Shown: positions 5,005 to 42,493 of the stretch, piece after piece
Layout: each line of letters opens with the position of its first letter
How positions within the stretch are numbered: the first letter of the stretch is position 1
Assembly: GCA_014728035.1 (NCBI GenBank)
Contig: WJMJ01000079.1
Coordinates: 64,001 to 128,000, forward strand
DNA: 64,000 bases
Direction of reading: 5' to 3'
DNA from: Promethearchaeota archaeon
GTDB lineage: Archaea; Asgardarchaeota; Thorarchaeia; Thorarchaeales; Thorarchaeaceae
Program-made: the position numbers and the translations under genes
The notes under the pieces: model-generated
What the model was told of the DNA's origin: nothing
What the model saw: only the letters and a program-made list of their open reading frames with translations
Databases searched by the model: none

Positions 5005-6300
5005 TTATTCTGAAATCTCCAAAAGAGGTTGACGTCCTTTGCCTTGAGGGATTAATGTGATTACACGATCTACTGACTGTTTTAATTCCTCCATATGGGT
5101 AACCACAATAACTTGATTGATAGAGTCCAATCCTTGGACTGCATCTGGTAGCCATCTTCTTCTGTGAGAATCCAATCCTGCTCCGGGCTCATCCAGAATC
5201 AATAGTCCTGGTGGTGGACTTGCAATGGAGTGTTTCTGTAGTGCAGTATTCATTCCAACCCGCAGTGCAAAATTCACACATACATCTTCTCCACCTGAAG
5301 CTGCCATTAGGGATACTTTGTTACCTTTGAGGTCGAAGAGCGACACATCATAATCATCATCTATGACAAGATCACTGTACTTATCACCAAAGATTTCTTT
5401 GAATATGGTCCGAGCCTCCTGCCTTATGTGTGGTCGTAATTGAACCTCTGCAATATCTGGTATTGTTTGCAATATTCTCTGAAGCTGCTTTGATATTTTC
5501 ATATCATGTGAAATCTCATCAGGCCTATCTGTAATGTTGGGTTTTCCCAGTTCAGAATCAATATCCTCTACTGACATTCTAACTTTTTCCAATATGGTTT
5601 CTATAGATGAAACATCGAAATCTGGAACATCTTGGTTTATTCTTTTGATTGTACTTCTAGCTGCCTGTATTTCGTCATCAGATGGAAGAAGCGATTTTAT
5701 GCTTTGGAGATTCTTTCTTGCTTCCTTGATGGCTTGAAGTTCTTTTCTTAAAGCTTTGAATAGTTTCTTTGTTTTTCCAGTGGTAGTGTTGTATATACCC
5801 AGACCCATCATGTTGTATAGATTAGCTCTTCTTTTACTAGGGGTCGAACGTGAAAGACTGTCTATTTCTCCTTGTCTTACATATGTCAATGCTGAAAAAG
5901 CATGGCGGTCCATTCCAAGAATTTTCTCTATCTCTTCATTTACTTTTCTGGGAGTGCTTTCAATTGGTGCGTGATCTGGCTCAAGTCGGAGTTCGGCTGT
6001 CGTTCTTCCATGATATATATTCCTAATAACTGAATATTCTCTCTGATTCACTGGGGCTATAAATGTGAGTTTGACCTTGCTTTTTCTTTGGCGGTGTTTT
6101 ATCAGATCGTCAACTTTTCTAATTGTCTTGTCTTTTCTTGTTATCCTCTTGAATAAAGCGAATTCAATTGCTTCAAGAATAGTTGTTTTCCCTGAACCAT
6201 TTGGTCCCACGATAGCAAGAGAGCCTTTGTCAAACTCAAATAGTTGATCAGCAAACACTTTGAAATTTTTTAGTTCAAGCGATTTTAACATTTCATTCAC
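5005..6300 (-). CDS. rad50: short Rad50/SbcC-like ABC ATPase (no zinc hook)
   Basis: LELKNFK, Walker A GPNGSGKT, Q-loop YVRQGE, signature ASGGE, Walker B/D-loop LILDEPGAGLD, VVTH; only 431 aa; 4-bp overlap with the mre11-like gene. Confidence 0.8.
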   Translation of the reverse strand: MNEMLKSLELKNFKVFADQLFEFDKGSLAIVGPNGSGKTTILEAIEFALFKRITRKDKTIRKVDDLIKHRQRKSKVKLTFIAPVNQREYSVIRNIYHGRTTAELRLEPDHAPIESTPRKVNEEIEKILGMDRHAFSALTYVRQGEIDSLSRSTPSKRRANLYNMMGLGIYNTTTGKTKKLFKALRKELQAIKEARKNLQSIKSLLPSDDEIQAARSTIKRINQDVPDFDVSSIETILEKVRMSVEDIDSELGKPNITDRPDEISHDMKISKQLQRILQTIPDIAEVQLRPHIRQEARTIFKEIFGDKYSDLVIDDDYDVSLFDLKGNKVSLMAASGGEDVCVNFALRVGMNTALQKHSIASPPPGLLILDEPGAGLDSHRRRWLPDAVQGLDSINQVIVVTHMEELKQSVDRVITLIPQGKGRQPLLEISE

Positions 6301-7364
6301 TCTCCCGTGATACGACCGACCAAATCTAAAAGATCATCAAGACCTTCTTCATCAGTCTGTTCAATATAATCTCTGATACTCGCTTCGATATTGAGTGGTT
6401 GTTTGAGTTTGATTTCTCTTGGTCCATAACATATCCAGTTTGGCTCCACATGCACAAAAAGTGAATTAAGCTGATTTTCCGCATGTTGAAGAATTTTTAT
6501 TCTATCAAGACCATTTTCGGTTTCGGAATCTATTATTCCGTCAACTCTAACAATTACAATAGCTCCATCTTTTTTCGGTGATAATTTCGAAATCATTCCC
6601 TGTAAGTATGAATTAGCCTCATCAGGTCCCATTCCAGTGATTTTTGCTTGTGGAAACTTGAACTCTCTAACATCATTGAGATTTTCAGTTGAGTATTCAT
6701 TTCCTTGAGAATCACTGTCAACTACAATGAGTTTCTTTTTACCGCCAACTTCCTTACTCCAATTAACATAACATGTTGAACCGGGTCGTCCAATATCATA
6801 TTCCTCATCTAACCAAAAACTATGTGCATGTCCACAACCATAGTAGTTGAAATGGATTGGTAATCGTTCCTTCTTTACTGGGATGTGATGAGCAAAAAGA
6901 AAAGCGGGGTCAGTCTGTGGAACAATTGAATTCAGCTTTCTCTCGAATAATTTGTCGCGCGTCCAAGAAAAAAGATGAACCTCAATTTTCCTTCCATCGA
7001 TATCAATTTTATGTGCTTTATAGTGATCATTTCCTGTTGACTTCACAACACCAGCTGATTCCAGTGCAGAAATTGGGCTTTGGATGTGACGATAGCCATA
7101 AGGAATATCATGATTCCCATGAACTAGGAACACTTCTACCTTATCTTGTATACTCTTGAAAAGGTCCATTGCAAAAGTCAAATCTTCCATGGATGGCAGT
7201 GGATTTTCAAAAAGGTCTCCTGTATGAACTAAAATATCGGGAGACTTTCGCATAGCCATGTCAATAGCTTTCTTTAGACATTGCCTAACATCATCCTTAC
7301 GTTCTACCAATTGAAAAAGTGTTTTTCCTAGATGCGAATCCGAGATATGTGCAATACGGACCAT
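6297..7364 (-). CDS. mre11: Mre11/SbcD-like DNA repair nuclease
   Basis: phosphoesterase motifs HISDSHLG, GDLF, GNHD, FAHH, GHAH, PGS; coupled to the Rad50-like gene; start set at ATG 7364. Confidence 0.85.
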   Translation of the reverse strand: MVRIAHISDSHLGKTLFQLVERKDDVRQCLKKAIDMAMRKSPDILVHTGDLFENPLPSMEDLTFAMDLFKSIQDKVEVFLVHGNHDIPYGYRHIQSPISALESAGVVKSTGNDHYKAHKIDIDGRKIEVHLFSWTRDKLFERKLNSIVPQTDPAFLFAHHIPVKKERLPIHFNYYGCGHAHSFWLDEEYDIGRPGSTCYVNWSKEVGGKKKLIVVDSDSQGNEYSTENLNDVREFKFPQAKITGMGPDEANSYLQGMISKLSPKKDGAIVIVRVDGIIDSETENGLDRIKILQHAENQLNSLFVHVEPNWICYGPREIKLKQPLNIEASIRDYIEQTDEEGLDDLLDLVGRITGE

Positions 7365-7523
7365 TACCACAACTCCAATGGATAGTTCTAGTATTTCATG
7401 AACTACCCTCAATCACTCTAAGTTTCTCTAACCGATATATCAATGCTATTGTGATGTGTTTTTACTCCAATTGATTGGAGTTTATATAATTGGAACAGAC
7501 ATAACTTGTGACTACTTTATCTG

Positions 7524-8450
7524 GTGAATGTGATGACCAGTTTAACTAATACTCAAGTCGAAGAGGAAAAACAACAAAAACCAGTGCTATCAAGACTAGG
7601 ATTATTGTGGCTCGCCTTATTGATGCTCTCAATTGGAACAATATGGCGGATTGTTGACATCTTTGTTTTAAATCTAGGCGAAACCCCGATGAATATCTTG
7701 CCATCCAAATTAGGACCTTTGTTGGTCATATTACTGGTCTTTTGGAAATTCCGTCCCACCGAGATTAAATCTATTTTGGGCCTCTCACAGGAAGATTACC
7801 GTGTTCAGATCACAGTTGGAATCTTAATGGGCTTCACAGTGATATTTTCAATGGTTTTTCTTGCGCCTATTTTGTACAATATCTTTGTTGACCCAACATA
7901 TCCCCTCACAATTAATATAATTCATGCAGACCTACTCTGGTATATGCTATTTTTCTTCTTTGTGAATGCAGTATTTGAAGAGATTCTCTTTCGTGGACTT
8001 CTTCAGAATGCTCTGAACACAAAATTAGACTTCAAATATGCATTATTCATCCAAGCAGCAATATTTGGCATATGGCATGCTACCTGGCCATTGATTAACG
8101 GACCAACTAGCAGCACCTTCATTCAAGAAGCGATTTCTGTTGTTGTGCTATCCGGCATCCTTGGAGCTTTCTTTGGATTGTATTATGAGAAGTTTTCACA
8201 TAGAAGAACACTAATTGGAACAATTACAGCACATACTATCTTTAACTTCATGAATGAGTGTTTCAAAGTTGGTCCCTCTCCAACTGTTCAAGGACCTGAT
8301 TTTTCATTTACAGAACCTGGTCTGATGGTAATTTCTTTGTTGCTGTTCGCTATAACTTTTGGTTCTATGATAGTCCTAGCTCTTAAATACCAGATAGAGG
8401 ATGTGTCGAATCTAAGAAGAAAAGTAGATTCTCTTCTCAGGAGGAACTAA
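7524..8450 (+). CDS. CPBP (Abi/type II CAAX) intramembrane metalloprotease
   Basis: multiple TM segments; EEILFRG, FGIWH, AHTIFN motifs. Confidence 0.9.
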   Translation: MNVMTSLTNTQVEEEKQQKPVLSRLGLLWLALLMLSIGTIWRIVDIFVLNLGETPMNILPSKLGPLLVILLVFWKFRPTEIKSILGLSQEDYRVQITVGILMGFTVIFSMVFLAPILYNIFVDPTYPLTINIIHADLLWYMLFFFFVNAVFEEILFRGLLQNALNTKLDFKYALFIQAAIFGIWHATWPLINGPTSSTFIQEAISVVVLSGILGAFFGLYYEKFSHRRTLIGTITAHTIFNFMNECFKVGPSPTVQGPDFSFTEPGLMVISLLLFAITFGSMIVLALKYQIEDVSNLRRKVDSLLRRN

Positions 8451-8453
8451 AAA

Positions 8454-9113
8454 ATGCAAACTAGCACAGAACTTACCGCATTTAGTGCCTTGGGTGCGGC
8501 TTTACTAAGTTTGATAGTTGGATTATATCTATTCTATCTTTGGAGAAAACAAAATGTTTCAATGTACACCGACCTTCCTTTTCTATTTGGAATAACCTTC
8601 ATTGCAATGTTTCTGAATATGCTAATTCAATCATTACCTGGTCTTGGTTTGGTTGAGGCTACATTACTACTCTTTAGAATCAGATCACTTGTAATATTTG
8701 GATCTGCCTTCCCATTGCTTGCTGTAATATTGATTATTTGGTTTCCTCAGATACAACATCATCACAATAAGATACTCCTCGTTCTTGCTATTTATTGGGT
8801 TCTCATAACTCTAATTGGTACAAGTGAGTCCTTAATCATGATTCTTCTAGTTCCTATTTTATTGGTATTAATCATTGGGCTCGTTGCTACATTTTTTGTT
8901 ACTTGGCGAACTAATCGCTTGAAAGAAGTTAGAAGTGAACTAATGATGATGTCATTAATTCTTTCTATTATATCGCAAGTTGGTGGTGTTTCATTACGTG
9001 CGATGGAATTGGGTTGGATAGCGAACCTCGTTAATGCAATTGCTACGATTCTGGCGGCTTTAGCTTTTGCAAATCCTTGGTATCGAAGAAAAAGTCATAC
9101 AGACCAAACCTGA
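8454..9113 (+). CDS. 7-TM integral membrane protein, unknown function
   Basis: about seven hydrophobic helices; 3 bp downstream of the CPBP gene. Confidence 0.75.
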   Translation: MQTSTELTAFSALGAALLSLIVGLYLFYLWRKQNVSMYTDLPFLFGITFIAMFLNMLIQSLPGLGLVEATLLLFRIRSLVIFGSAFPLLAVILIIWFPQIQHHHNKILLVLAIYWVLITLIGTSESLIMILLVPILLVLIIGLVATFFVTWRTNRLKEVRSELMMMSLILSIISQVGGVSLRAMELGWIANLVNAIATILAALAFANPWYRRKSHTDQT

Positions 9114-9175: not shown

Positions 9176-10729
9176 CTATCCATAAATTGTACAGCTTTCT
9201 AAAATTTTTCTATCCGTTGTTAGTGGTATTGGTTTTGCTTGAATGTGACTTGATTTGACTATATCTTCGAAGTGGGATTTTACCATTCTAACCAAACTTG
9301 TAGGACCAAGGGCACCTGTTTCTCTGACTACACGGAACTCTTCGTTTGTTTGTTTTAAGTGGTCTTCAAATGCAAAAACAAACTCTGTGATATCCACTTC
9401 GGAATTTCTGAACATTGCTGCAATTGTGTACTGTGGAAGTCCATTATTAACAACACCGACAACACTGTAATCCATTAGCTCCGCACTAGTTCTAGAGCAT
9501 GCATATGTTATTGCATTTGAAACATGTGCTTCGGATAATTTCTCACCTGAAAGGTTGACTACCCTGCCTTTTCTCCCAACAGAGCGAATAGTATATGGTT
9601 GAGTATCAGTGATTGTCAACATGTCCCCATTTCGGTATCTATAGTATCCCCCAATTGTAGTCAAGACAATCTCATATCTGAAGCCCTTCTTAACCTCTGA
9701 AAGAGGAATTACTTTTGGATTTGGTTTCTCACATTCCTTTTCTGGAATGAATTCAAAATATGTTAGATGGGGGATTAGTTGCATTCCTTTTTTATCTGGA
9801 TACATCTGACCAGCAAAACATCCTTCTGACCCTCCATATACTTCCCAAATCATGGTGTCCGGTAATGTTTTGCTAATCCATTCTCGATATGGATCTGTAT
9901 CTATACCCATGGCATAGAAAAGTTTCAAATCTGGCCAGAGTTCAGCAACATCTAATTTTCCATCACTATACATGGCTCTTCTAATTTTCGACTCGTGTTT
10001 CGTTCCCTTTAGCTCTTCAAGCAACCAAGGACCATAGAGTTCTTGCATTCTTCTCATGAGCGCAAGAGATAAAGTAGTAATACCTTGCAAAGCAGTTATC
10101 TTCTCAGTTGCTGCTATTTTAGCATACGCTCTCATTTTGTCATCCATATCTGTTATATTGAATATCTCTTCACCTGGCTTCATCAATCTTTGAAAGATTT
10201 TGTTCTGTCTTCGTCCTAAGACACCAGTTGCATAACCAACAGGGATTCCGTTGATAGTATCTAATTCTGCTGGCGCTCCAAAAATGAGCATGGTGCCATC
10301 AAGAATCTTGGGATGCTCATTATCGGCCATCATAAATGCCATCAATGTATTCATTGAACCTTTTGATGTGTCCTTACTTCCTGATGCTGTAACTGGTAAA
10401 TGCTTTGGCTTACCAGTGGTTCCAGAAGTTTGGAGATATGCAAATGGACTCTCCATAGTCAATGCTTGACAATCTGGGTCATCATATATCCTTTGTAAAT
10501 ATGGTAACCGTGATTGATGTGTAGAAAGTGGAACTCTTTCCATCCATTCGTCAATATTACATATTGATTGAAAATCATATTCCATACCAAATTGGGTATT
10601 TTTCTGACTTTCAATTATTTCAAATAATTTTTTTTCAGAGTGTTCGATTGGAGCACTTAGAATCCTTTCCATTTCTTTGAATTTCTTTCGTGCTAATACC
10701 GACACCAGACGCCTCATAATCGACATCAT
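9176..10729 (-). CDS. GH3-family adenylating enzyme (acyl-acid amido synthetase-like)
   Basis: TSGTTGKPKHLP, YGGSEG, YFEFIP, YRYRNGD, GEKLSE motifs; GGAGG RBS before ATG 10729. Confidence 0.85.
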   Translation of the reverse strand: MMSIMRRLVSVLARKKFKEMERILSAPIEHSEKKLFEIIESQKNTQFGMEYDFQSICNIDEWMERVPLSTHQSRLPYLQRIYDDPDCQALTMESPFAYLQTSGTTGKPKHLPVTASGSKDTSKGSMNTLMAFMMADNEHPKILDGTMLIFGAPAELDTINGIPVGYATGVLGRRQNKIFQRLMKPGEEIFNITDMDDKMRAYAKIAATEKITALQGITTLSLALMRRMQELYGPWLLEELKGTKHESKIRRAMYSDGKLDVAELWPDLKLFYAMGIDTDPYREWISKTLPDTMIWEVYGGSEGCFAGQMYPDKKGMQLIPHLTYFEFIPEKECEKPNPKVIPLSEVKKGFRYEIVLTTIGGYYRYRNGDMLTITDTQPYTIRSVGRKGRVVNLSGEKLSEAHVSNAITYACSRTSAELMDYSVVGVVNNGLPQYTIAAMFRNSEVDITEFVFAFEDHLKQTNEEFRVVRETGALGPTSLVRMVKSHFEDIVKSSHIQAKPIPLTTDRKILESCTIYG

Positions 10730-10853
10730 ATTATCCTCCGTACTTTCGAGAGAGAGTACTATTTTATATGGCGCCATACATTGAGTATATTACTTGCCTT
10801 TTGAATGAAGAAGTTTTAATATGCCTTAATGTATATTTTATAGAACTAATAGT

Positions 10854-10873
10854 TTTCCACGACAGCTTATATA
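10854..10873 (+). promoter_or_regulatory. candidate extended BRE + TATA (TTTCCACGACAG-CTTATATA) upstream of the recombination operon
   Basis: BRE-like CGACAG directly before CTTATATA; the same 12-mer occurs inverted at 29125-29136. Confidence 0.4.
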
Positions 10874-11314
10874 CGATTATATCAATTTATTACGAAAATT
10901 GGGCACTCATAATTTCATAATGTTGGTTACATTGCTAAATCATATACGGTTTTTCGTCAATTTTAGTCCAATTTTTTAAAAACAGTAATTCCCTAATTTG
11001 GATTTTCACTGATTATATTTTCAAATACGTGCTCTCAAACTACATAATTTGTTTATTGTAAATTGAAAATCAGATCGAAGCTTTTCATGGTTTCTTACAT
11101 TTCTTATGAAAAAGGTGCAATGAAATGGCAATGGCTATGATTAAAACGGACTAATAGCATAAATTAACGCCATTTAATTCTTTTTGAAGTCCATTTTACT
11201 GTTGTGGAGTTTTATGGAATCTATTTTGTAGATTTTGAGTGATTAAAACGTCGATAAAGCCATCACCCAAAATTGAAGATTTAATGAAACTAGTATTTTC
11301 ATGACGGTGAACAA

Positions 11315-12070
11315 ATGATTGCAAAACTCGAAAGTCAGTTAACCCATATTTGCAATGATTCGGGTTACAGCTCGAAGATGATTGATGTAACATCAACACT
11401 TCAAATGATTTTCAATAATTCTGATAGGAGCATCATAAAGGCTCGCTTAAGATACGAAGGTCCTGATAATGACAGCTGGATTGTTGTTATTCTTGGATTG
11501 AGAAGCAGTATCCTTGAACCTTTCAACAAATTTACTCGGATCTCAAAAAATCAGTATCTTCCTTGTGATATATTTGGACTTGTTCCGTGTATTGCTCAAC
11601 TTGTGAGATTTGAATCATCAGGTCCATCTTTGAGTGCTGTTGCAAAAGATGATGTTACTAGAATCGTCTTGGTTTTTGAAGGCGACTCAAGTGCACGTTC
11701 TGGATGTATTAACTCCTTAGCAACTCGATTGTGGCGCTTTATGAAGCGCTGGGATGAGTGGACAAGTGTGCTGATGAATATTTTGGAAAAAGACCAGTAC
11801 ATTGGTGATTGGGATATCAATTGGCGAGAGCTTCTAGCAGGAGAATCGGGTTTTGTTACAATGCCATGGTTCTCACCACTACATTATGATGACCGTGTTC
11901 TTGCATTATCAAGAATTGTTATTTCATCAAAAGCACTTTTGACATCAGTTCTGAATGAACGACAGATGAGTGACCCTCTGATCAGGGGACTCATTAATTG
12001 GTTGGAAAATCTAGAACCTCTGTCACGTATCGTCAGTGCACCGTCAACTAATGAGGAGGTTGTGGTGTAG
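11315..12070 (+). CDS. hypothetical protein, operon gene 1
   Basis: 251-aa ORF with Trp-rich C-terminal half; overlaps the next gene. Confidence 0.75.
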   Translation: MIAKLESQLTHICNDSGYSSKMIDVTSTLQMIFNNSDRSIIKARLRYEGPDNDSWIVVILGLRSSILEPFNKFTRISKNQYLPCDIFGLVPCIAQLVRFESSGPSLSAVAKDDVTRIVLVFEGDSSARSGCINSLATRLWRFMKRWDEWTSVLMNILEKDQYIGDWDINWRELLAGESGFVTMPWFSPLHYDDRVLALSRIVISSKALLTSVLNERQMSDPLIRGLINWLENLEPLSRIVSAPSTNEEVVV

Positions 12071-12539
12071 TTTGTTAGTGAATGATCATTATAACTCATG
12101 TTGGTCTGGTGACATCGAATTACCGGATGTATCTTGGCTATCTGGTGCAAAAGCTGGATTGCAAATATCTGAAGGTAGAAGACCCGATTGGAACTGGGAT
12201 GAGTTTCTTTTAGATCTCGATGCGATGCTTCAGTATTTTAGTGATATTCAATCTGCGTTTCCTGGACAGGCACCATTGTTAGATGATGGTATTGTAGGTT
12301 CAATTCTTACCGCTCTCGGTGGTTATATCAGTGTTACCGGATATCTCCTTGATGATGGGTTATTCTTCAGGGTTTCTAAGAAATATCATGAAGATGTTAG
12401 AATTGCACTCTCAGGATATGATGTCCAACCTTATTGTGATGGGTTGATTATTTCTAAAACGGATCTGGCCAGACTTCAAAATATTTTGCCAATCCAAGGA
12501 CCGCTCTTTGAATTGATATACCAGGAGGTAATGACTTGA
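12036..12539 (+). CDS. hypothetical protein, operon gene 2
   Basis: ORF ends in a TTGA overlap with radA; true start probably after the GAGGAGG at ~12053. Confidence 0.65.
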   Translation: MHRQLMRRLWCSLLVNDHYNSCWSGDIELPDVSWLSGAKAGLQISEGRRPDWNWDEFLLDLDAMLQYFSDIQSAFPGQAPLLDDGIVGSILTALGGYISVTGYLLDDGLFFRVSKKYHEDVRIALSGYDVQPYCDGLIISKTDLARLQNILPIQGPLFELIYQEVMT

Positions 12540-14040: not shown

Positions 14041-14041
14041 A

Positions 14042-25945: not shown

Positions 25946-25955
25946 TGGTGATTCC

Positions 25956-29883: not shown

Positions 29884-30030
29884 AAATAGATACCAAGTCC
29901 CGGGTAGATTCTGATTTTTCAGGTCATGGAGGTCCCCCCTCATTTTCGACTAAACCACGCCAAAATAACTCCAACTATAATTTCCGGGACACCCTCTTTA
30001 TTTCGTATGTTCATCTTGGGAGGTATATTC

Positions 30031-33000: not shown

Positions 33001-36000
33001 TACTTGGCTGATTCGATTGAACTTGATGATTGTAACATCTCAATAAAAGTTGAGAATTCTACCACCTCTTTTGATTGGTCATATATCGAATCATCTCCAT
33101 TTCAAATACAAACTCCTACTGACGAATTGACATCTGGTTCTTACGATATGATTGTTGAAGTTTCACACGAATTCTGTGATTCCTTATTACTCACTGATAC
33201 TGTGACGATTGAAGCACCCATTGCAACATATATTCAAACAGTCGGAAATCTATCTGTTTTAATAGGTGATAGTGCTACTATCAATTGGTCTCTCTGCTTC
33301 ATGTCTAATGATAGTTTTATCTCAGATCAGAAGGTTTTGCTTTCGATATATGATGATGAAAACCAGATAGTGAAACAGGAAACCATGATTTCAAAATCAA
33401 CTGTTCAAAGCTTTTCATGGAGCCCTGAGGTACGTGGAAACTACACTTATACTTTAGAGTTTGCACAAAATGGGTCTTTCGTTAGTTCAGAATCTACTTC
33501 ATTTATTGAAGTATTTGAACAGACCGAGTTGAGTTGGAAATCCGAAAGTATTGCATTTCAATATGACACTATAGCCTTAACAGGACGACTCACAAATACA
33601 TCTGGATTTGCAATACCCTCATCCGATATCCACGTTCAAGTAACATCTCCAATCTCTACAATTGTTATTGATTCAGTCTATCAAACAAATTCGACTGGGT
33701 ATATCACATTTCCATTGTCTTTGAATTTTAATGGATATTATCTAATACATCTGGAGTATAATGGAGAGTTCTATCGAACTGCAATTGATTTAGATACCTC
33801 ATTGCTTTCATGGACCGATACATCTGTAGATATCTTATCTTTTCCATCCGAAGGTATTGTTGATTCTCAATATTCTATAACTGCGCTACTCTCAGACTCA
33901 GTAGAGAATCCAATTTCTAATCAACCCATCCTTGTGAGAATTACCTATCTACCCTCCTTGATCGTCTATGAAAACACCTTCGTGACAAATGCATCCGGAC
34001 ACATTACGACAGATTGGTCCGGGTCAAGTGCTGGATCATATTATGTAGAAATAATCTTCTCAGGTTCGATAACTTATGGTACTTCGAATTCTTCCCATCA
34101 AATTGAGTTGCGTTTGAATCTCCAAATCAGTTTATATCCTGAAACTAGCTATGATGTTAATAATACTGGAAGTTTTCTAATTGAAGTGCTAGACCAAGAT
34201 GGTTATGAAGTTTCCAACATTCTAGTTCAAATTGCAATATACAATTCATCACATCAATTGGTCTATGAAACCTCTGCGCTTATTGAGTCAGGTTTCTGCG
34301 ATGTTACATGGACTCCTATTATGCGAGGTTGGATGAACTTCAGTGTTACTATTGATCGTCAACATTGGTATGAAAGTGAGTTTGCATGGACCGAAATCGC
34401 AGTGTACGATACTCCACTTCTCTCAGTTTCAGTTTCGGATGAACTAGTAGCTCCTTCAGTTATCAACTCGATTATTTTAGTACAAGATTCTAATCTACAC
34501 CCTATTGGGCTTGTTTCTGTCAATATTGAAGTTCAATTAGATGGGCAAGTAATCGAAACCTACTCAAATCAAACAGACTCGCAAGGTGAAATCATTCTAA
34601 CTATAAATGTTGAAAATCCTGGTGTTCTCTCCATATTCTCAACACTCACTTCTCAAGGATACCTTAGATTTAGGTCAAATGAAACTCAATATGATATACT
34701 TGGAAGTACAACTCTGACTCTTACTACCCCCACTCAACCAATATCTCAGGGAACGACGGTTGTAATTGTAGCAACTTTACTTAATTGGGATTCGAATCCA
34801 TTGGTTGGAAAGAATATTGATATTCGTGTTTCATGGTCTAATGGAACCTTGATCTTCTCAAACATCAAAACAACCAGCTCAGCTGGAAAAGCAAGTACTT
34901 CTTATACATTTTCTGTTGTAGGTGATTACTTGATTGAAGTTAGGTTCAATGGCGACTTGGATAACGCTAAATCAGAAAGTACCAAACCTCAGCGAGTTTA
35001 TATCACGCCCTCAGTTTATCTTGATGTCACTCAAACTTGCTATTTAGATGAACCCCTTTCCTTATCTATTGGCATCACAGACTATTATGGTAGTTTCATT
35101 CCTGGGAGAACTTTGTTAATTAGAATTCTAGAAGATGGTATTGTAATAAACGAAACACAGGTGGAATCTACATGTGATATATCAACTATCCTTTGGATTC
35201 CGTTGAATAGAGGAGTAATCTCCGTTGTCTTACTGCACGCAGGAGACCTTTACTTCTATTCGAATTCTACCGACGAAACAGTCACGATATACGAATCAAT
35301 ATCTGGTGCTTTAGAGTCTGATACATCCACTGTTGAATTGTTTGACAGCACTGAATTTACATATCAAATCATTGATGCCTCGGAAAATGAAAGTATACTG
35401 ATAGAGTTCCAAGTTCTGGGTGTAGACTTGATACCAGTCTGGATTGCTCAACAGTTAACCAACTCGTCTGGAATGGCATCGGTAAATTATTTGGCTGATG
35501 ATACGCATGGAATCCTAACTATTCGTGCTTTTCCTGTAGAGAGCGAGTTTCTTACTGGTGGAACGAAACAAATCCAGTTGACAGTACGAACCGATTGTTC
35601 ATCCTTTATTGGACTTGCACCTTTCCCTCCTGCTTTGGGTGGATCTGTTAATATTTCTATTCAAGTGCTTGATGAATTCTCAGAACCTTTACAATCTGTT
35701 AGAGTACTGGTCAGTTTAGAAGACCCATATGGTGAACCTGTTCAGTTTGGAATTTATTCCACTAAAATTGTCTATACTAACTCTGAAGGTTATGCTATTG
35801 TTGAATTTACTCCCCAAATTAGTGGTAGCTACAAAATATCATTAAGCTCGGATGGTAGTGATACTGTAAACAGTTTTTCCACCTCTGAGCATAAAACCAT
35901 CTATTGTCCCACCGGAATTTCCTTGCACCTAAATCAATCGGACATTAGAGTGGGTGATGGAATAATCATTTCAGCATGTTTGAATGATTATTTTACTTCA

Positions 36001-37899
36001 GCTATTCCTTCTCAGAATCTTACTTTCATTCTTGATGGACCTGGAAGTGCTGGTTTTGGCCCTCTGGATATAATCACTAATAGTTCCGGATATGCTGTAT
36101 TGGAGGTATCAATTCAGGCTGAAGGTCTATGGACCGTAGTAGTAGAATTTGATGGAATTGGAGTATATCTCGGTTCATTATCAAGTTATGAAATAGACGC
36201 AGACTATGGCACCTCTATCCTAATAGATCATGATTCTGACCAACAACCAGTAGCTGAAGTAGAATCTCTGTTTGTAGAGGTGCAACTAGTAGATGATGAT
36301 GATAGAGTATTAGAAGGATTTACAATCAGCTATTTTGTGTATCATGAAATATCTGGTCTTGTAGATTCCAATTCTATTATCCAAGATAGTCAAACTCCTC
36401 TTGGCATTAATATCTCATTCACAACAATGGGAGAACATACTATTGTTTTCAGTTTTTCAGGTACTACCCACTATCATCCATCATCGAACGCTATACTCTG
36501 CTGGGTTCTTGGTACAACATCTGTCAATGTATCTTTGCCATCCAGTATTGACAGGTCGGAGAATCGAAATGTTTCAATTAGAATCTTTGATGAAACTAGC
36601 TCACCCCTTCCTCCCTCTCAATCTTTTATGTTGTTAGAACTTATTTACGAGGAAAGCTCGATTAACATTGAAGACCGGATTTTCTGGCTTGATGACACAG
36701 TTAGGGTGAACATCACTGCACTCTCTATAGGTTTGTATACTCTACGAATAATTATTGAAAGCACCAATGAACGAATAGGATTGACTTCAGAATCCAGTTT
36801 CACAGTAACATCAAATGTAACCATAAATGTGATTGATGAAACCCTATCGGGGATTATAGATGAAGAACACAGCATAACAATTATGCTTCATGATTCACTA
36901 GATGTTGAGGTCCCCAATCTTGAAGTTCAGGTAAGTATTTTCAATCCTAATAACAGAGAGATATTTGGAAATCCTCTCACGTCATATACATTAATTTCAG
37001 TAGAAGCTGGTGGCTATCAGATTTCCTTCACACCGTCTCTATCTGGAAACTATTCAATCGTCATTTCTTTCAATGGGAATCTCTTTTTGAGTTCTGCTAA
37101 TTATGAAAGAACTATACTTGCCCGTGTTCAGACACAATTATCCATTGAGATTTTCAATGATTGGGAATTCGGGGAATCAGTTTCTATTTCAGTAAATCTT
37201 GTCGGGGGTATTTCAAAAATGAAGGATGAATTGATTTTCATATCTATTTATCGTGATAGCACATTCGTATCTGATTATGAAATAAGTACCTCTGCAAATG
37301 GCATTGGCTCGATAGAAATTATGCCAGAACTATCTGGAAATTATGTGGTTATTGCAAAATACCAAGGAACCGATTACTTCGCACCAGCTATGATTGAGAG
37401 TACTTTCCAAATACTTCCTAGACTTTCTATTAGTCAAACTGGATCAACAGGCATTTATGTCGGACTTGATAGCACAATCCATTTTGAAATTAGAGTGGTT
37501 GGTGTTTCAACAGAATGGGTTGGAAATGTCAGTATTGAGATTTTCGATTCGGAAAACAAAAAAGTCGAAGAGAAAACTATCGAGATTAATTCATTTGAAA
37601 TCTTCTCAGTTTCATTCATACCTGAATCAGTAGGAGTATATTTCTTCAAATTTAATGTTAGCACAGTTCCAATTCTTACTAACCTGACACATGAATTTCA
37701 ATTCGAAGCATTCACTGTTCCTATATACATGCATCTTGATGTTGGAACAGTTCCTGTAGTCAGTGGCATTGGGATAATAGTTGTATTTGCTTTGATTTTT
37801 ACGCAGCGACTCAATAATGTTTCAGTAAAGTTACCCTCTGAATGGGGTTACGGGCGTTCTAGAGGTGAAGAGAAAAAGACTGCAATATCTTCAAGATAA
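30031..37899 (+). CDS. giant cell-surface protein: signal peptide, prenyltransferase/squalene-cyclase-like alpha/alpha barrel repeats, many Ig-like repeats, C-terminal TM anchor
   Basis: GGAGGT RBS + TTG 30031 (MIRKSLTILMLFVML); repeats YLANQQSIDGDFG, WLTDNQLDSGGFG, YLSTQQASSGHY; recurrent TN.SG...G.Y.I...F.G...Y..S; TM VSGIGIIVVFALIF; many N-x-S/T sequons. Confidence 0.8.
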   Translation: MIRKSLTILMLFVMLCPIIFNTTLLSPSSASTIEPSTFKPISQSLLASDSGTVVDTSVYSVLELTNGGISPTGDEWSLLLNESGIVSNVITVGQILSNSSIIDSSVAILLDNSLGSENGTSVSESLLDILVKRDAPIIALGQAAWLLHRFRKTSPPSMTAPSTTSLLTSSPYEGAVFLNKPFPLVPECTLFTESMNIPVDQIQAEHSRIVNLVGTVSSNDIAPLRYDSWPLDIFLYSPSNPGLLTGSGKDLLVNILSYCTSLGESEITLNLQNQQVTNSSPFIGGFQHSHEPKLSSTYYAIQAMNSLKNNSQWIEWVSVNNHSMLEQLSSIYEEDTTEAWFLPHSSSTSFDVDSTAQGLWLVSILNLSDSFNVEKVSTYLANQQSIDGDFGNNILTTSIVLLALEQAQKLSSIDTSKAENWLRSCVIDGGKTNESKLWGGIGKNPTDLNPSNHYALALLTGLDALDTNHDDPLKLTEWITVKTGNLDGSYNNTLDSISEIVIGTACALSSLSIMGTLTTENRTAGFSWLTDNQLDSGGFGIEKHPRDVVAKVKESSLVSCSLWHIGEISTEVATKLTSFFESCKSPYGFEEMERIPSLMWSSWLSQVARYSHGWNHLDNELFASYIEVVDSWTIYPFWNNLSTLLALEYNFDQYRTKSVWTQYFGITSAIFSGLSLSSEIIGSTEAYLSTQQASSGHYRNSMMLDTPSIQYSIAAIETLHLLNSLGTIQYRSELENKILSEYSSGLWSSASWTLRPFAGCQPAIDYLSTRAAVRLEIVTSTMADEIEAVITSRIQYDDLWKLSCDVATLALLNSSGFSVNLESINCTKVLESLGSNPFSDGWYNSTELWQPVYTAQILEMVSILGIRTQLWGVKGSIISVSCSPTVDIRESIELAIAITSDIPENRLVVHAFGISRSFDDVLSTDSISIPIPQEANALGPVNISVMVVNWNKSRGFDICSVDVLGSITGNLEVHTHQVLPGQLINSTLSFYLADSIELDDCNISIKVENSTTSFDWSYIESSPFQIQTPTDELTSGSYDMIVEVSHEFCDSLLLTDTVTIEAPIATYIQTVGNLSVLIGDSATINWSLCFMSNDSFISDQKVLLSIYDDENQIVKQETMISKSTVQSFSWSPEVRGNYTYTLEFAQNGSFVSSESTSFIEVFEQTELSWKSESIAFQYDTIALTGRLTNTSGFAIPSSDIHVQVTSPISTIVIDSVYQTNSTGYITFPLSLNFNGYYLIHLEYNGEFYRTAIDLDTSLLSWTDTSVDILSFPSEGIVDSQYSITALLSDSVENPISNQPILVRITYLPSLIVYENTFVTNASGHITTDWSGSSAGSYYVEIIFSGSITYGTSNSSHQIELRLNLQISLYPETSYDVNNTGSFLIEVLDQDGYEVSNILVQIAIYNSSHQLVYETSALIESGFCDVTWTPIMRGWMNFSVTIDRQHWYESEFAWTEIAVYDTPLLSVSVSDELVAPSVINSIILVQDSNLHPIGLVSVNIEVQLDGQVIETYSNQTDSQGEIILTINVENPGVLSIFSTLTSQGYLRFRSNETQYDILGSTTLTLTTPTQPISQGTTVVIVATLLNWDSNPLVGKNIDIRVSWSNGTLIFSNIKTTSSAGKASTSYTFSVVGDYLIEVRFNGDLDNAKSESTKPQRVYITPSVYLDVTQTCYLDEPLSLSIGITDYYGSFIPGRTLLIRILEDGIVINETQVESTCDISTILWIPLNRGVISVVLLHAGDLYFYSNSTDETVTIYESISGALESDTSTVELFDSTEFTYQIIDASENESILIEFQVLGVDLIPVWIAQQLTNSSGMASVNYLADDTHGILTIRAFPVESEFLTGGTKQIQLTVRTDCSSFIGLAPFPPALGGSVNISIQVLDEFSEPLQSVRVLVSLEDPYGEPVQFGIYSTKIVYTNSEGYAIVEFTPQISGSYKISLSSDGSDTVNSFSTSEHKTIYCPTGISLHLNQSDIRVGDGIIISACLNDYFTSAIPSQNLTFILDGPGSAGFGPLDIITNSSGYAVLEVSIQAEGLWTVVVEFDGIGVYLGSLSSYEIDADYGTSILIDHDSDQQPVAEVESLFVEVQLVDDDDRVLEGFTISYFVYHEISGLVDSNSIIQDSQTPLGINISFTTMGEHTIVFSFSGTTHYHPSSNAILCWVLGTTSVNVSLPSSIDRSENRNVSIRIFDETSSPLPPSQSFMLLELIYEESSINIEDRIFWLDDTVRVNITALSIGLYTLRIIIESTNERIGLTSESSFTVTSNVTINVIDETLSGIIDEEHSITIMLHDSLDVEVPNLEVQVSIFNPNNREIFGNPLTSYTLISVEAGGYQISFTPSLSGNYSIVISFNGNLFLSSANYERTILARVQTQLSIEIFNDWEFGESVSISVNLVGGISKMKDELIFISIYRDSTFVSDYEISTSANGIGSIEIMPELSGNYVVIAKYQGTDYFAPAMIESTFQILPRLSISQTGSTGIYVGLDSTIHFEIRVVGVSTEWVGNVSIEIFDSENKKVEEKTIEINSFEIFSVSFIPESVGVYFFKFNVSTVPILTNLTHEFQFEAFTVPIYMHLDVGTVPVVSGIGIIVVFALIFTQRLNNVSVKLPSEWGYGRSRGEEKKTAISSR

Positions 37900-37916: not shown

Positions 37917-39887
37917 TTAGCTGATTTGACTTAAGAGACCTGATAGATCTTCATCCCACGAACCGTCTTGTCGAAGCAATCGCTGAAATCTATTATTTTT
38001 ATATGATTCAAAACCTCTTACATTATCGATTCTTACCACCATTCCATCATCCAAAGCGATAGCAGGTAATTGTTTCATAAGTTTGTATAGATCGGGTTGA
38101 GGAATTCGAGAAAATGCATAGAGTTTTTCCAAATTCTCAGATACATGAGCTGTTGTGGTTGGAAGGTATTTCAATAAGGCTCTAGTTAATGATAGAATCT
38201 TTGGTTTTGGCCCTTGCGCAATAGTCAGCACACTTGGGATACTATAGAAGGTTGGTCGGTAGAAGTAATCGAGTGCATTTACTCCTTTCAGTTTTTCAAA
38301 TGCAGAAATCATAGACTCGGGTTCAACGTCAAAATGGTTCCAGAATTCTTTTTTCTCGCCTACTGTTAGATATATCCTGTGAGTAGCTAAATCAAGAGCT
38401 TTTGCATCCGATTCTGAGAGTTTGATACTCTTTTTTCCTCTATATCCCGGATATTCGTTGTTTAACCGTCTCAACGTGTAATCCTTTTTCATTGCTTTGA
38501 GAATTTTAGGAACATCCACAAACCAGTCATTCTTTTCTTTATCGAAAATATCAAGATTAGTTTGAAATTTTGACCAACCTATCTCTGTAAACTTCTGGTC
38601 GGTTCTTCTTAGTCGCTCAATGGCGTTCTTTGGCATGTTCATGATCTGAATATATTCAGGTTTCAGAAGTGGATTTCCAAATTGTGCTAGTATTTCTAGG
38701 TGTTTGTGAGGCCATCGATGTGCAGCGCCTATATATACAATCCTAGGCAAGTTTATTGCATTGGTGTGATAAAAGGGGGTTATTCCAACTCCATACTCCA
38801 TGATAATCAGACGTTTTCTCCACAGCTCTTTAGATTTCCTTGCTGTTTCTTCTGATACTGGTGATTCAACTATGACTTTATTTTGTTTCATTAGGTTCTT
38901 GCAAATCTCAATTGCATCCCTGGTCCAATCTGGAAATTCTTCAGCAATCTTCTCCACTGCTAGTTGCCACGGCTCTTGATATCTCATTGCTTCCAAGCTT
39001 CTTTTCGGAAATTTGAGTTGCCCTTTAGCTGCCTGTTCAAATGCTTCTGCATATCTTGGAATGTTTGCATCATCCAACACACATTGGATATGGCCAAACA
39101 TCAGGGTATGCAATATGTATTTATCACCCAGATTTTCGAAGAACCGTGTCGAGTACATCTCATTTTTATCAAATTTGATTAACCATGCGTAGAAGATTCT
39201 TATCTCATTCCGAACACTCAATGGGAAGTCTGAAGGTATGTATCTATCAAGGGCTTCTCTTAATGTCTGTGGTTTGCTAGATGAAGAGATTGACATTTTT
39301 CCTCCCAACTTGGCTAGATCCGACCAAGATGGAGCCCCTTGATTGAGAATTTCGCTAAAATCATTTGATTGAAAAAACAAAGTTTTCATGATTTCTATAG
39401 ATTCATACTCCGTCTTCATGATTAGAAAATTTTTCTCATATTCTTTAATCAAACGAGAAACGAATAGATATCTTGTTTCGGGATCAAGTATTGTCAACCA
39501 ATACTTATTGGCTTCTGATGAATTGTTGATAAGGACAATCATTTCTCGCCCTTCACGATTGATACGGCTAACCCATGAACCATTGGTTTTTGGATACATG
39601 ATGACTGGTTTCATAATAGGACCTAATTGATAGCTTTTTTTCCCGACATATTGCACATGAATATCTACTGCGATTTCTTGAGCAAGTTTTTTTCTCTGAC
39701 TAATTCCAGAGTTATCCGTAAATATTTCATTATTAAAATACAGAATGACATCATTAGATCTATGTGAGAATGATTCAGTATCTGTTTTCACGGTATATCC
39801 GTCTGGAGTATATTCTATTATTGCCCATTCTTTCTGTCCTCCTCTAACAGATACCTTGATTCTAGTTCCTGAAACCTTGCTAGACAT
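37917..39887 (-). CDS. large putative regulator, paralog of 26955-29006
   Basis: collinear C-terminal motifs TNLDIFDKEKNDW, LSESDAKALDL, FYRP, LYAFSRIP, FQRLLRQDGSW. Confidence 0.6.
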   Translation of the reverse strand: MSSKVSGTRIKVSVRGGQKEWAIIEYTPDGYTVKTDTESFSHRSNDVILYFNNEIFTDNSGISQRKKLAQEIAVDIHVQYVGKKSYQLGPIMKPVIMYPKTNGSWVSRINREGREMIVLINNSSEANKYWLTILDPETRYLFVSRLIKEYEKNFLIMKTEYESIEIMKTLFFQSNDFSEILNQGAPSWSDLAKLGGKMSISSSSKPQTLREALDRYIPSDFPLSVRNEIRIFYAWLIKFDKNEMYSTRFFENLGDKYILHTLMFGHIQCVLDDANIPRYAEAFEQAAKGQLKFPKRSLEAMRYQEPWQLAVEKIAEEFPDWTRDAIEICKNLMKQNKVIVESPVSEETARKSKELWRKRLIIMEYGVGITPFYHTNAINLPRIVYIGAAHRWPHKHLEILAQFGNPLLKPEYIQIMNMPKNAIERLRRTDQKFTEIGWSKFQTNLDIFDKEKNDWFVDVPKILKAMKKDYTLRRLNNEYPGYRGKKSIKLSESDAKALDLATHRIYLTVGEKKEFWNHFDVEPESMISAFEKLKGVNALDYFYRPTFYSIPSVLTIAQGPKPKILSLTRALLKYLPTTTAHVSENLEKLYAFSRIPQPDLYKLMKQLPAIALDDGMVVRIDNVRGFESYKNNRFQRLLRQDGSWDEDLSGLLSQIS

Positions 39888-39964
39888 GACCTTTACTCGT
39901 CATGAGAGAAGGAGTTGATATATTTAGATTTCCCTACAAGGAAAAACTTGATGAAAGAATTAGT

Positions 39965-40046
39965 ATGAGATGCCCGATGTGAGCATCTCATGGGTTCGGA
40001 ATCTGAGGCTGGTGCTTACCAGGGGCCGTCAGATCCGCGGGGTGGG
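39965..40046 (-). ncRNA. candidate structured non-coding element (two GC-rich hairpins)
   Basis: perfect 9-bp inverted repeat 39965-39973/39983-39991; long stem 39997-40006/40029-40037 enclosing CTGGT-N4-ACCAG; GC-rich against an AT-rich background. Confidence 0.4.
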
Positions 40047-40278
40047 AATTCATTTGTCTTAGTCATTATTGTTCACTGAATATTAATTCCCTTCCCCAAT
40101 CGAAAATTCCCTATATCATTAGTAGCTAATCTAGATGCGAAAAATACCACTTACCTATCATAGTAATGCTATATTTCCGGGTAGCTTAAATTGCATCATT
40201 TGCAAATTAGTATGCAGTTGATAGTAGGTGGGAGCGAGTGCATACAGATTCTATACGAAACTCAACCATTAAAATATA

Positions 40279-40318: not shown

Positions 40319-40325
40319 ACGAGTT

Positions 40326-41288
40326 TTACGGTGCCATTGTAATTTCAAGGGCATTAACTAGCTCCTTGTATCTGTTTCGTACAGTCACTTCGGTTACACC
40401 AGCACATGATGCTATCTCTCTTTGAGTGACCCTGTTGTCAACCAGAATTGATGCAATGTAAATGGCTGCTGCTGCGAGGCCTCGAGGGTCTCTCCCAGTG
40501 ATTAAGCCGTGTTGACTCTTTGCCATGTCTATGATTTCTACCGCCTTTGCCTGGACTTCTCCAGGAAGACCGAGTTCAGTGATAAATCGTGGAATGTAAT
40601 TGGTTGGTTCAGAGATTGGCATCTTGATTTTGAGCTTCATCACTAGCATACGATAGTGAGCACCCATTTTCTTTTTGGATACCCTGCTATGTTTAGCGAT
40701 CTCCTCGAGTGACCGCGGTGATTCGCGTAGTCTGCATGCAGCATATATTGCCGCTCCAACTGTTGCATCAATTGACCTGCTTTTAGCGAGTCTTTTGACG
40801 ATCAGTTTTCTGTAAAGCAAAGCTGCTAGCTCCTTGATGCTCTTGGTTAGACCAAGTTGTGATGCTAATCTGTCAAGCTCTGTCATTGCTTGAGCCAGGT
40901 TGCGATCCATTGAACTATGCACACGAGTTCGTATCTGCCACTTACGTAGTCTTGCTATTTGAGCACGTCTGCGAGATGAGAATTGTCTTCCTGACGAATC
41001 TCTATCACGCCAGTCAATCATTGTTGAGAGACCTTTGTCATGTATTGTATACGAACTTGGAGCTCCAGTTCTAGCACGGGAATCACGCTCTTCTGCTGTG
41101 AATGCTCGCCACTCTGGACCTGAGTCTATCCGATGATCGACCAGTACGAGTCCACAAGTAGCACAAATTGTCTCGCCTTTGGCACTGTCTAGAACCATAT
41201 CGGTTCCTCCACATTCCTGGCAAGTAATCTGCCCTGCGTTGTTTTCTTTGTGTGTTTCTTCCATTCTTGAATTGGTTTTGGTGGCCAT
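40326..41288 (-). CDS. tfb: transcription initiation factor IIB (paralog 2)
   Basis: Zn ribbon CQEC..CATC, GPEWRAF, HDKGLST, two cyclin repeats, TQREIA..GVTEVTVRNRYKEL. Confidence 0.95.
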   Translation of the reverse strand: MATKTNSRMEETHKENNAGQITCQECGGTDMVLDSAKGETICATCGLVLVDHRIDSGPEWRAFTAEERDSRARTGAPSSYTIHDKGLSTMIDWRDRDSSGRQFSSRRRAQIARLRKWQIRTRVHSSMDRNLAQAMTELDRLASQLGLTKSIKELAALLYRKLIVKRLAKSRSIDATVGAAIYAACRLRESPRSLEEIAKHSRVSKKKMGAHYRMLVMKLKIKMPISEPTNYIPRFITELGLPGEVQAKAVEIIDMAKSQHGLITGRDPRGLAAAAIYIASILVDNRVTQREIASCAGVTEVTVRNRYKELVNALEITMAP

Positions 41289-41378
41289 GTTTGTTGTTTC
41301 TCTCTCCTGCTAATAGAGCTCTTTCGAGATGTCCCATTTGGGTCGTTGTGAAAGAGCCTTTTGGGATTCCTATTCACC

Positions 41379-42332
41379 TTATGGTGCCATAGTAATACCC
41401 AATTTCTTGACTAGCTCCTTGTAGCGATTGCGCACTGTTACTTCAGTTACTCCAGCTGCCATAGCGATGTCACGTTGTGTGACACGATGATCCATAAGGA
41501 TAGATGCAATGTAAATGGCTGCTGCTGCGAGGCCTCGAGGGTCTCGACCGGTAACAAGACTGCGTTGTTCTTTTGCTTGTTCAAGGATTTCCAATACCTT
41601 TTGTTGAACAATACCTGGTAACTTCAGCTGAGTGATGAACCGGGGCACATAATTCGCCGGGTCAGATATTGGCATCTTTAGTTTCAGTTTCATTACGAGT
41701 AATCTGTAGTGTTGCCCAATCTTCTTCTTTGATACTCTGCTGTGGCGAGATATTTCCTCTAGAGATCTTGGAGCTTCTCTCAATCTGCATGCGGCGTATA
41801 TTGCGGCACCTACCATTGCGTCAATCGATCTGCTTCGAACTAGTCTTCTCACGATGAGTTTTCGATAGAGTAAAGCAGCTAGCTCTTTGATACTTCTATT
41901 CAGACCAAGCTGTGAAGTTAGTCTGTCGAGTTCGGACATAGCCTGCGCTAAGTTTCTATCAACAGAACTATGAACCCGTGTTCGAATCTGCCATTTTCGT
42001 AGCCGATATATTTCAGAACGTTTCTTAGCAGAGAATCGTCTACCTGACGAGTCGTGGTCACGCCAGTCAATCATTGTCGAGAGGCCTTTATCGTGGATTG
42101 CGTAATTCGTTGGTGCTCCTGTTCTTGATCGTGCATCGCGCTCGTCTGATGTGAATGCTCTCCACTCAGGACCTGTATCGATACGATGCTCTGAAATCAC
42201 TAGACCACAAGAGGAACATATTCGTTCTCCTTTTTCTAAATCCTGTACAACTTCGTTACCTCCACATTCTGGGCAGGTAAATCCACTGGATTTTTTGCGG
42301 TCTGTTCTTTTTGCTCGGTCGCTTCTTGACAT
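41379..42332 (-). CDS. tfb: transcription initiation factor IIB (paralog 1)
   Basis: CPEC..CSSC, GPEWRAF, HDKGLST, GVTEVTVRNRYKEL; GAGGTG RBS before ATG 42332. Confidence 0.95.
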   Translation of the reverse strand: MSRSDRAKRTDRKKSSGFTCPECGGNEVVQDLEKGERICSSCGLVISEHRIDTGPEWRAFTSDERDARSRTGAPTNYAIHDKGLSTMIDWRDHDSSGRRFSAKKRSEIYRLRKWQIRTRVHSSVDRNLAQAMSELDRLTSQLGLNRSIKELAALLYRKLIVRRLVRSRSIDAMVGAAIYAACRLREAPRSLEEISRHSRVSKKKIGQHYRLLVMKLKLKMPISDPANYVPRFITQLKLPGIVQQKVLEILEQAKEQRSLVTGRDPRGLAAAAIYIASILMDHRVTQRDIAMAAGVTEVTVRNRYKELVKKLGITMAP

Positions 42333-42477
42333 GTTGACACCTCTCATTATGACTGGTCCTTTCTAAATCTAATCAAATTAGACCGCGTTTCTCTCTCGAT
42401 AGAGTGGAAAAAACACTCAAAACGCTCATTAAAGGCCCCGTCAGATTCCGCTACACTTATATAGTTGAATGTTTTCC

Positions 42478-42493
42478 TTTATAAATCTTTCGG
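42478..42493 (-). promoter_or_regulatory. BRE-TATA promoter of the tfb pair
   Basis: minus-strand CCGAAAGA-TTTATAAA, a canonical archaeal BRE + TATA; implies a ~120-nt leader. Confidence 0.7.

Follow-up and report, generated by a model that had tools for sequence, protein, structure and literature searches.

A two-module cluster of envelope and recombination genes forms the conserved part of a composite 37-kb stretch in a thorarchaeal genome

We analyzed a stretch of about 37 kb (positions 5005-42493) from an archaeal genome in which genes for a miniature Mre11-Rad50 pair, a recombination operon, a giant surface protein with a neighboring membrane protein, a pair of other large proteins, and tandem transcription factors of the TFB family lie close together. 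The stretch is part of a 64,000-nucleotide window, meaning the whole piece of DNA that was analyzed, which corresponds to C45:64001-128000 (contig C45) in a 4.3-Mb metagenome-assembled genome (MAG) of 173 contigs. The original prediction had joined these five blocks into one damage-response-like regulon, with the TFB pair as its switch, the miniature Mre11-Rad50 pair for end processing, and the giant protein as the contact factor. All of the blocks are present at the coordinates listed below, as judged from the open reading frames (ORFs) and from Pfam and NCBIfam scans of them. The 37-kb stretch, however, is a composite and not one unit. The conserved unit is a two-module cluster of ∼31 kb, located at about 8454-39887, so that one part of the predicted regulon is kept and both of its outer blocks are not. 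In the redrawn unit, the GH3 gene, w09, w26, w27, w28, and w29 join the operon, and the miniature Mre11-Rad50 pair and the TFBs are excluded. Our best guess from the sequences is that the cluster encodes an envelope-anchored machine for DNA handling or exchange. We did not find a description of this cluster in the literature searched.

The members of the cluster are as follows, with block identities taken from the ORF listing and domain scans and with transmembrane (TM) segments predicted by a hydropathy scan of the window proteins.

8454-9113, plus strand: w09, 219 aa, with 6-7 predicted TM segments, convergent to the GH3 gene
9176-10777, minus strand: w10, a GH3-family adenylating ligase, divergent from the operon
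11315-26945, plus strand: w11-w25, the recombination operon, 15 co-directional and tightly packed genes
13597-14040, within the operon: w14, which combines a four-cysteine Zn ribbon with a winged helix of MCM-like type (E 1.2e-4 for the latter)
26955-29006, minus strand: w26, 683 aa, single copy in the genome
29287-29883, plus strand: w27, 198 aa, with four TM segments by hydropathy, always directly upstream of w28
29926-37899, plus strand: w28, a surface protein of 2657 aa with Pfam matches to Big_1, Big_3_5, Filamin, and Prenyltrans
37917-39887, minus strand: w29, 656 aa

The gene context of the cluster was compared in a synteny panel covering 46-80 kb around the operon marker w19 (shorter at contig ends) in 19 genomes and 14 genera of family f1, the Thorarchaeota/Promethearchaeota MAGs. 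One sister-family genome was taken in as well, all window proteins were mapped by tblastn, and the counts of the flanking genes in the 19-genome panel were used as a control for background synteny. Genes w13-w25 were found near the operon in 16-19 of the 19 genomes, with w11 in 15 and w12 in 14. The corresponding counts were 16 for w26, 15 for w27, 16 for w28, 15 for w29, and 13 for GH3. For the flanks, w01-w05 on the left were present in 1-8 genomes and w32-w39 on the right in 2-3. GH3 and w26-w29 therefore behave like the operon, because their counts are above the flank control. Genes w06, w07, and w09 were found in seven genomes each and the TFB pair in three. The counts of the miniature Mre11-Rad50 pair (w06 and w07) match those of the left flank and the counts of the TFB pair match those of the right flank, thus neither behaves like the operon.

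The spacing of the genes tells the same for the individual members. Where GH3 is found in the panel, it lies 8-11 kb upstream of w19 (13/19). The w28 head and w19 occur on one contig in 28 family genomes and are always 11-14 kb apart on the same strand. The position of w26 varies, yet it is within the cluster in 16 of the panel genomes, and w29, which is located either downstream of w28 or upstream of w11, is within the cluster in 15. The claim that the operon co-occurs and stays linked with the giant surface protein, its membrane neighbor, and the two large paired proteins is thus borne out, both by the constant w19-w28 distance and by the embedding seen in family f2 (below). The GH3 gene had been set aside as unrelated; this is reversed by its place among the more consistently linked genes, which includes positions near the cluster in families f2 and f12. 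As a whole, clustering beyond chance applies only to a subset of the genes: linkage across genera and families holds for GH3, w09, the operon, and w26-w29 and does not hold for the miniature Mre11-Rad50 pair and the TFBs.

Linkage extends beyond the family with altered gene orders. In the sister family f2 (G112), the order is w19-w20-w21-w27-w28-w22, followed by a RadB-like and a FEN1-like gene, and GH3 is located upstream. This run is co-directional with reading frames that abut or overlap, and w27 and w28 are thus inside the operon. In family f12, a 1645-aa w28-like gene is found between the RadA paralog (w13) and w14-w22, and GH3 and w09 form a convergent pair 7 kb off. This convergent arrangement of GH3 and w09 is seen in the f12 genomes G052 and G122 and also in G167, within the envelope module that is separated there. 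Family f13 has a run of adjacent genes made up of w14, a Hel308-like gene, a 1318-aa w28-like gene, and a RadA-like gene. Of the small proteins, w14 is the one kept in the largest number of Asgard families, often directly beside the w28-like gene (f12 and f13). A rearranged recombination core is present in families f2, f7, f8, f12, f13, f19, and f28, and GH3 is distributed over f1 (57/76 genomes), f2, f3, f12 (18/19), and f13 (3/3). Taken together, these gene contexts show that the two modules stay together across genera and, in altered gene order, across families.

The cluster is chromosomal, vertically inherited, and dispensable. The marker w19 occurs as one copy per genome in 52 of the 76 family genomes sampled, with weak homologs in other Asgard families. 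Sequence identity of the cluster drops with taxonomic distance, from 68% within the genus to 35-45% in other genera. The left flank is the same in five genera of the panel, and GC content is uniform across the window and the same as in the flanks. In the complete genome G245, the operon and w26-w28 are deleted, and a truncated GH3, w29, and a truncated w11 are left (G245:C1:885624-890000). In G134 (contig C5), w01-w09 are kept together with a GH3 fragment that contains stop codons.

The operon encodes a full-length RadA paralog, an XPD/DinG-like helicase (w16), a Hel308-like helicase (w20), an AAA protein, a RadB-like protein, and a FEN1-like nuclease, in addition to proteins without an assigned role. 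NCBIfam places the helicases with Hel308 and Rad3/XPD, with scores under the curated cut-offs. The canonical RadA is encoded elsewhere on the same contig. Four membrane proteins with predicted TM segments (w17, w19, w21, and w23) are interleaved with the enzymes, and the Pfam scan returned no match for any of them. The profile of w19 matches HerA chains (E 1.8e-5) and the protein has a predicted N-terminal TM segment; its P-loop reads GGTESERK, with a lysine that is not conserved in the w19 family consensus. Profile searches of the PDB with w21, w23, and w11 gave nothing usable, and w11 as a TFB-like protein was rejected (hhalign probability 0.2%). At 537 bp, the AT-rich divergent spacer between GH3 and w11 (10778-11314) is unusually long, and neither an ORF nor an RNA was assigned to it.

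The second module consists of GH3 with w09, w26, w27, w28, and w29. Pfam matches w10 to the N-terminal, middle, and C-terminal domains of GH3 acyl-acid amido synthetases (PF03321, 107.8 bits; PF23571, 65.6 bits; PF23572, 35.7 bits; gathering score 23.6 each), which places it in that family. No family was assigned to w27 by the Pfam scan. A hint from the Atlas that w27 is a zincin peptidase was rejected because the HExxH motif is absent. In the surface protein w28, an N-terminal signal anchor and an alpha/beta domain precede the double alpha/alpha-toroid head; after the head come a long Ig-like stalk, a TM anchor at the C-terminus, and a short basic tail. Residues 60-1050 were modeled with AlphaFold 2 (AF2) at a predicted local distance difference test score (pLDDT) of 85 and a predicted template modeling score (pTM) of 0.82. 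Foldseek matches the head to squalene-hopene cyclase and to the prenyltransferase beta subunit (E 4e-6), and the Pfam Prenyltrans match has an E value of 1e-14; no sequence match to the head was found in the PDB. The double toroid is shared with class II terpene cyclases, prenyltransferase beta subunits, and the thioester domain of alpha-2-macroglobulin. In contrast to these proteins, to which it is ∼10-16% identical, the w28 head is predicted to be outside the cell, carried on an Ig stalk that a C-terminal anchor ties to the membrane. The head is single copy in this genome and was found as a single copy in 61 of 76 family genomes in a phylum-wide search.

The large proteins w26 and w29 are distant paralogs (hhalign probability 97%, E 2e-11) that share a C-terminal region of ∼200 aa. 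The AF2 model of w26 is poor (pLDDT 55), and its C-terminus reads as three helices followed by b-a-b-b-a-b. With this low-confidence model, Foldseek returned NirDL (E 1.8e-4) and Lrp/AsnC regulators (probability 0.8-0.99; ST1022, 0.98). A PDB profile search with w26/w29 gave a weak NirD-like match (E 0.024), and structural neighbors in the Atlas carry HTH_24 or HTH_AsnC-type domains. Based on these matches, the shared C-terminal region looks like an Lrp/AsnC-type winged helix-turn-helix (wHTH)-RAM arrangement, in w26 as tandem modules in the C-terminal half, subject to the low confidence of the w26 model. Both proteins are putative DNA-binding regulators, and w29 is a putative multi-wHTH protein.

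The two outer blocks of the 37-kb stretch consist of the following genes.

5005-6300, minus strand: w06, a miniature Rad50/SbcC-like ABC ATPase of 431 aa (Pfam AAA_23/SMC_N)
6297-7412, minus strand: w07, an Mre11/SbcD-like phosphoesterase (Pfam Metallophos, E 3.8e-11), with an uncertain start that had earlier been placed at 7364
40326-42347, minus strand: w30 and w31, tandem full-length TFBs of 320-322 aa, each with a Pfam Zn ribbon and two TFIIB repeats

We read the miniature Mre11-Rad50 genes as an accessory pair at a conserved left-border position and not as a component of the system. A canonical Rad50 has ∼880 aa, a long coiled coil, and a CxxC zinc hook; with its 431 aa, w06 is not of this type, and it scores 156 bits against the NCBIfam Rad50 model (cut-off 700), with only two stretches matching, the N- and C-terminal lobes. 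A Rad50 of canonical length (a 941-aa ORF) is encoded on contig C78 of the genome. For w07, Pfam recognizes the calcineurin-like phosphoesterase domain, and the score against NCBIfam Mre11 is 79 bits (cut-off 500). In all relatives that have the pair, w07 adjoins w06 and the pair is beside w05/w04/w02. Of the 52 genomes that carry the operon marker, 34 have a w06 ortholog, and in the other 18 none was found; of the 29 genomes without the marker, 7 have one. The left-flank block, including the pair, is intact in G215 with no operon gene within 19 kb. G103, G155, and G046 lack the pair and have GH3 directly against the flank, and remnants of the pair with stop codons are present in G143, G116, and G257. 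The best PADLOC match of w06 is mad3 of the MADS defense system (E 9e-39), which covers nearly the full length. This match and the decay to pseudogenes in several relatives hint that the miniature Rad50 has an accessory or defense-type role. The divergent spacer between w07 and w08 contains an 8-2-8 palindrome at 7464-7481 (ACTCCAAT TG ATTGGAGT) by a TATA-like box; the palindrome is not preserved in G128.

About six ancient TFB groups occur throughout the family, and the TFB pair, which represents one of them, is a neighbor of the cluster in only two genera. The two proteins are 74% identical to each other. The six full-length TFB genes of the genome make up two tandem pairs and two singletons (40326-42347, C151:58062-58964, C151:75025-77182, and C44:165645-166583). 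The helix that reads the B recognition element (BRE) is identical in five of the six paralogs, thus nothing points to a separate promoter class. The w31/w30 type was detected in 69 of 81 family genomes, which cover all 16 genera. The pair is within 25 kb of w19 (<=25 kb) only in genera g1 and g9, which are the genomes that keep the CysRS/LarA/Feo right flank. Two arrangements are seen in g9, one beside GH3 (G275, G269, G254, G218, G149, and G087) and one downstream of w29 (G103 and G194). Elsewhere, the pair is on other contigs, 60-150 kb away (G027, G143, and G260), or 1.38 Mb away (the complete genome G239). Presence is discordant in both directions: the TFB type is present in G134, G063, and G242, where the cluster was not found, and was not found in G140, which carries the cluster. 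The claim that the pair is a switch held at the locus is therefore not supported, with linkage in 2 of 14 genera, this discordance, full-length proteins, and no promoter motif. A trans-acting role of the pair is conceivable, yet co-location offers no argument for one. We also considered w31 as the housekeeping TFB (83-98% identity across genera). This was dropped, and the general TFB cannot be singled out, because conservation across genera is equally high in two other TFB groups (84-88% and 75-87%). All three TFB groups that were checked are ∼75-90% conserved across genera, and such family-wide TFB multiplicity is unusual. In the spacer between w29 and w30, a G+C-rich conserved stretch (39955-40060) contains a hairpin (ATGAGATGC ... 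GCATCTCAT), the arms of which are kept in G128 with a differing loop; the conserved block TTACCAGGGGCCGTC comes after it. Neither ARAGORN nor Rfam reports anything in this stretch, which may be a small RNA or a regulatory element.

A promoter motif shared between the units had been expected from the regulon. Words of 7-9 nucleotides were counted upstream of w10, w11, w26, w27, and w29 in 20 genomes and compared to shuffled controls. The best word, AAAATAGA, occurred 11 times as compared to a null maximum of 9, and this count is inflated because divergent genes share one spacer. Words common to six intergenic spacers of the window were not above shuffles, and GGCTCTWWWWW occurred twice in the window (1.3 expected). 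The word TCTATTT, which was found in a larger ortholog set (upstream of w11 in 5/28 and of w27 in 4/20), was rejected as only marginally above the null. In the window spacers and the orthologous loci, no promoter motif that links the units is clearly above the shuffled controls.

The explanation that we favor, with slightly better than even confidence, is that the composite stretch holds a two-module cluster building an envelope-anchored apparatus for DNA handling and recombination, with the outer blocks as neighbors. Module A is the operon of paralogous recombination-type enzymes with its four interleaved membrane proteins, module B is the envelope set, and the two together could form one envelope-spanning apparatus. 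We infer that w28 makes the outside contact, which could be to a partner cell, to DNA, or to another ligand. The membrane proteins and a motor-dead HerA-like ring of w19 would make up a membrane station, at which the helicases, the nuclease, and the RadA paralogs would process and recombine DNA, and w26 and w29 may act as local DNA-binding regulators. Several points weigh against this explanation. With its degenerate P-loop, w19 is probably incapable of pumping DNA, no DNA pore or pilus component was identified in the cluster, the regulatory role of w26 leans on a model of low confidence, and the promoter search found no link between the units. Adjacent genes in related genomes are non-independent observations. 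Part of the co-absence in MAGs comes from the assembly: G116, G185, and G272 seemed to be operon-negative, yet they carry cluster fragments at contig ends. The modules can also be separated. In G167, they are on separate contigs and both intact, with w29, w09, GH3, a copy of w11, w26, w27, and w28 together; in family f3, GH3 is present without w19; and in families f19, f7, and f8 the recombination core occurs without GH3, and no w28-like gene was detected.

This separability and the lack of a common promoter motif are what would be expected if two unrelated systems were neighbors by descent, namely a cluster for surface-protein biogenesis or modification (GH3, w09, and w26-w29) and an intracellular second recombination/repair operon. 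We regard such a coincidence of neighbors as unlikely, since w27 and w28 are embedded in the f2 operon with overlapping frames, a w28-like gene is again among recombination genes, in a different order, in f12 and f13, the operon itself encodes four membrane proteins, and the housekeeping flanks lose linkage far faster than module B. A single regulon of all five blocks, as originally predicted, would account for their adjacency here and in the same-genus genome G128, for the two arrangements of the TFB pair next to the cluster in g9, and for the miniature Rad50 being more common with the operon marker than without it. It is distinctly improbable given that 12 of 14 genera show no linkage of the TFB pair, that where linkage exists it follows the distribution of the housekeeping right flank, that TFBs and cluster each occur where the other was not found, that the TFBs are full length with a recognition helix common to most paralogs and are no better conserved than other groups, that the miniature Mre11-Rad50 pair stays with w01-w05 in the operon-free G215 and was not found in 18 marker-bearing genomes, and that no shared promoter motif rises above the controls.

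An antiviral defense island, with a surface receptor or shield, helicase and nuclease effectors, and an SMC-like ATPase pair, is suggested by PADLOC matches of the miniature Rad50 to mad3, of w20 to HamB (E 4e-39), and of w16 to type IV DinG (E 3e-79), as well as by the patchy and partly degraded miniature Mre11-Rad50 pair. The helicase matches, however, are to broad superfamilies, for which NCBIfam gives Hel308 and Rad3/XPD under the cut-offs, and PADLOC finds the gene set of no known defense system. Paralogs of RadA, RadB, and FEN1 would be atypical defense parts, and the single-copy locus keeps a fixed place on the chromosome, with a divergence that follows taxonomy, all of which makes this reading very unlikely. 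Hardly credible is an integrated conjugative or viral element with its own recombination and transfer genes. A HerA/VirB4-like membrane protein next to a surface protein would suit such an element, as would the dispensability of the cluster and its deletion in G245 with GH3, w29, and w11 remnants. The hallmarks of integrated mobile elements, which are an integrase, a tRNA border, a deviating composition, and a variable site, do not apply to the cluster: no tRNA gene (ARAGORN) and no Rfam match were found in the window, no integrase family was found among the scanned window ORFs (Pfam), GC is as in the flanks, the left flank is the same in five genera, and there is one copy per genome.

TFB3 of the Sulfolobales is part of a DNA-exchange program induced by UV and DNA damage that includes the Ups pili and the Ced importer. 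This program is the closest functional analogy to the cluster, in that it conceptually joins cell contact, a membrane-embedded HerA/VirB4-type protein, and homologous recombination, and in that a TM-anchored HerA-like protein is found here alongside RadA paralogs. By their defining features, TFB3, CedB, and the pili have no equivalent in the cluster, though. TFB3 is truncated and lacks the cyclin-fold DNA-binding core; w30 and w31 are not TFB3-like because both are full length, and their position is not conserved. CedB is an active ATPase with an intact Walker A motif, whereas the P-loop of w19 is degenerate. As for the Ups pili, no Pfam family of a type IV pilin, an assembly ATPase, or a membrane platform was found in the ORFs of 1-50 kb, and the contact candidate is an anchored protein of 2657 aa instead of a pilus. 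Moreover, the parts of the Sulfolobales program are scattered, whereas those of the cluster are at one locus.

Two further systems are similar in part. The archaeal herA-mre11-rad50-nurA operon shares with this locus a HerA-superfamily protein and an Mre11/Rad50-like pair, here within 12 kb. In contrast to that operon, the Rad50-like protein reaches half of the usual length, the recombination operon and the pair are not conserved together, a NurA homolog was not detected at the locus, and the canonical Rad50 is elsewhere in the genome. In eukaryotes, HELQ is a partner of the RAD51-paralog complex BCDX2 (PMC13623763). The cluster similarly encodes a Hel308/HELQ-like helicase with several RadA/Rad51 paralogs, a likeness in gene neighborhood only; its membrane and surface proteins have no eukaryotic parallel.

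A more specific version of our favored explanation, which we consider doubtful, is a mating-like Asgard apparatus. In it, w28 would recognize a partner cell, a station around the motor-dead HerA/VirB4 relative would receive DNA, and the private RadA paralogs, helicases, and flap nuclease would recombine it into the chromosome. If this is true, the coupling of cell contact to recombination would have in this apparatus a prokaryotic forerunner, within the lineage nearest to eukaryotes. More generally, if the linkage reflects function, Asgard archaea would own a dedicated envelope-coupled recombination system unlike any described, which would bear on the use of DNA exchange, Rad51 paralogs, HELQ-like and XPD-like helicases, and FEN1 before eukaryotes.

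The remaining genes surround the cluster as follows.

Left flank: w01-w05, housekeeping genes including a HAD hydrolase and a pyridine-nucleotide oxidoreductase
7524-8450, plus strand: w08, a CPBP (Rce1-like) membrane protease (Pfam PF02517, E 2.8e-16)
Right flank: w32-w39, housekeeping genes including DtxR, FeoAB, a LarA-like gene, and CysRS

The protease gene w08 is a variable neighbor of w09, being beside it in 2 of the 19 panel genomes and in G134, G185, and G272.

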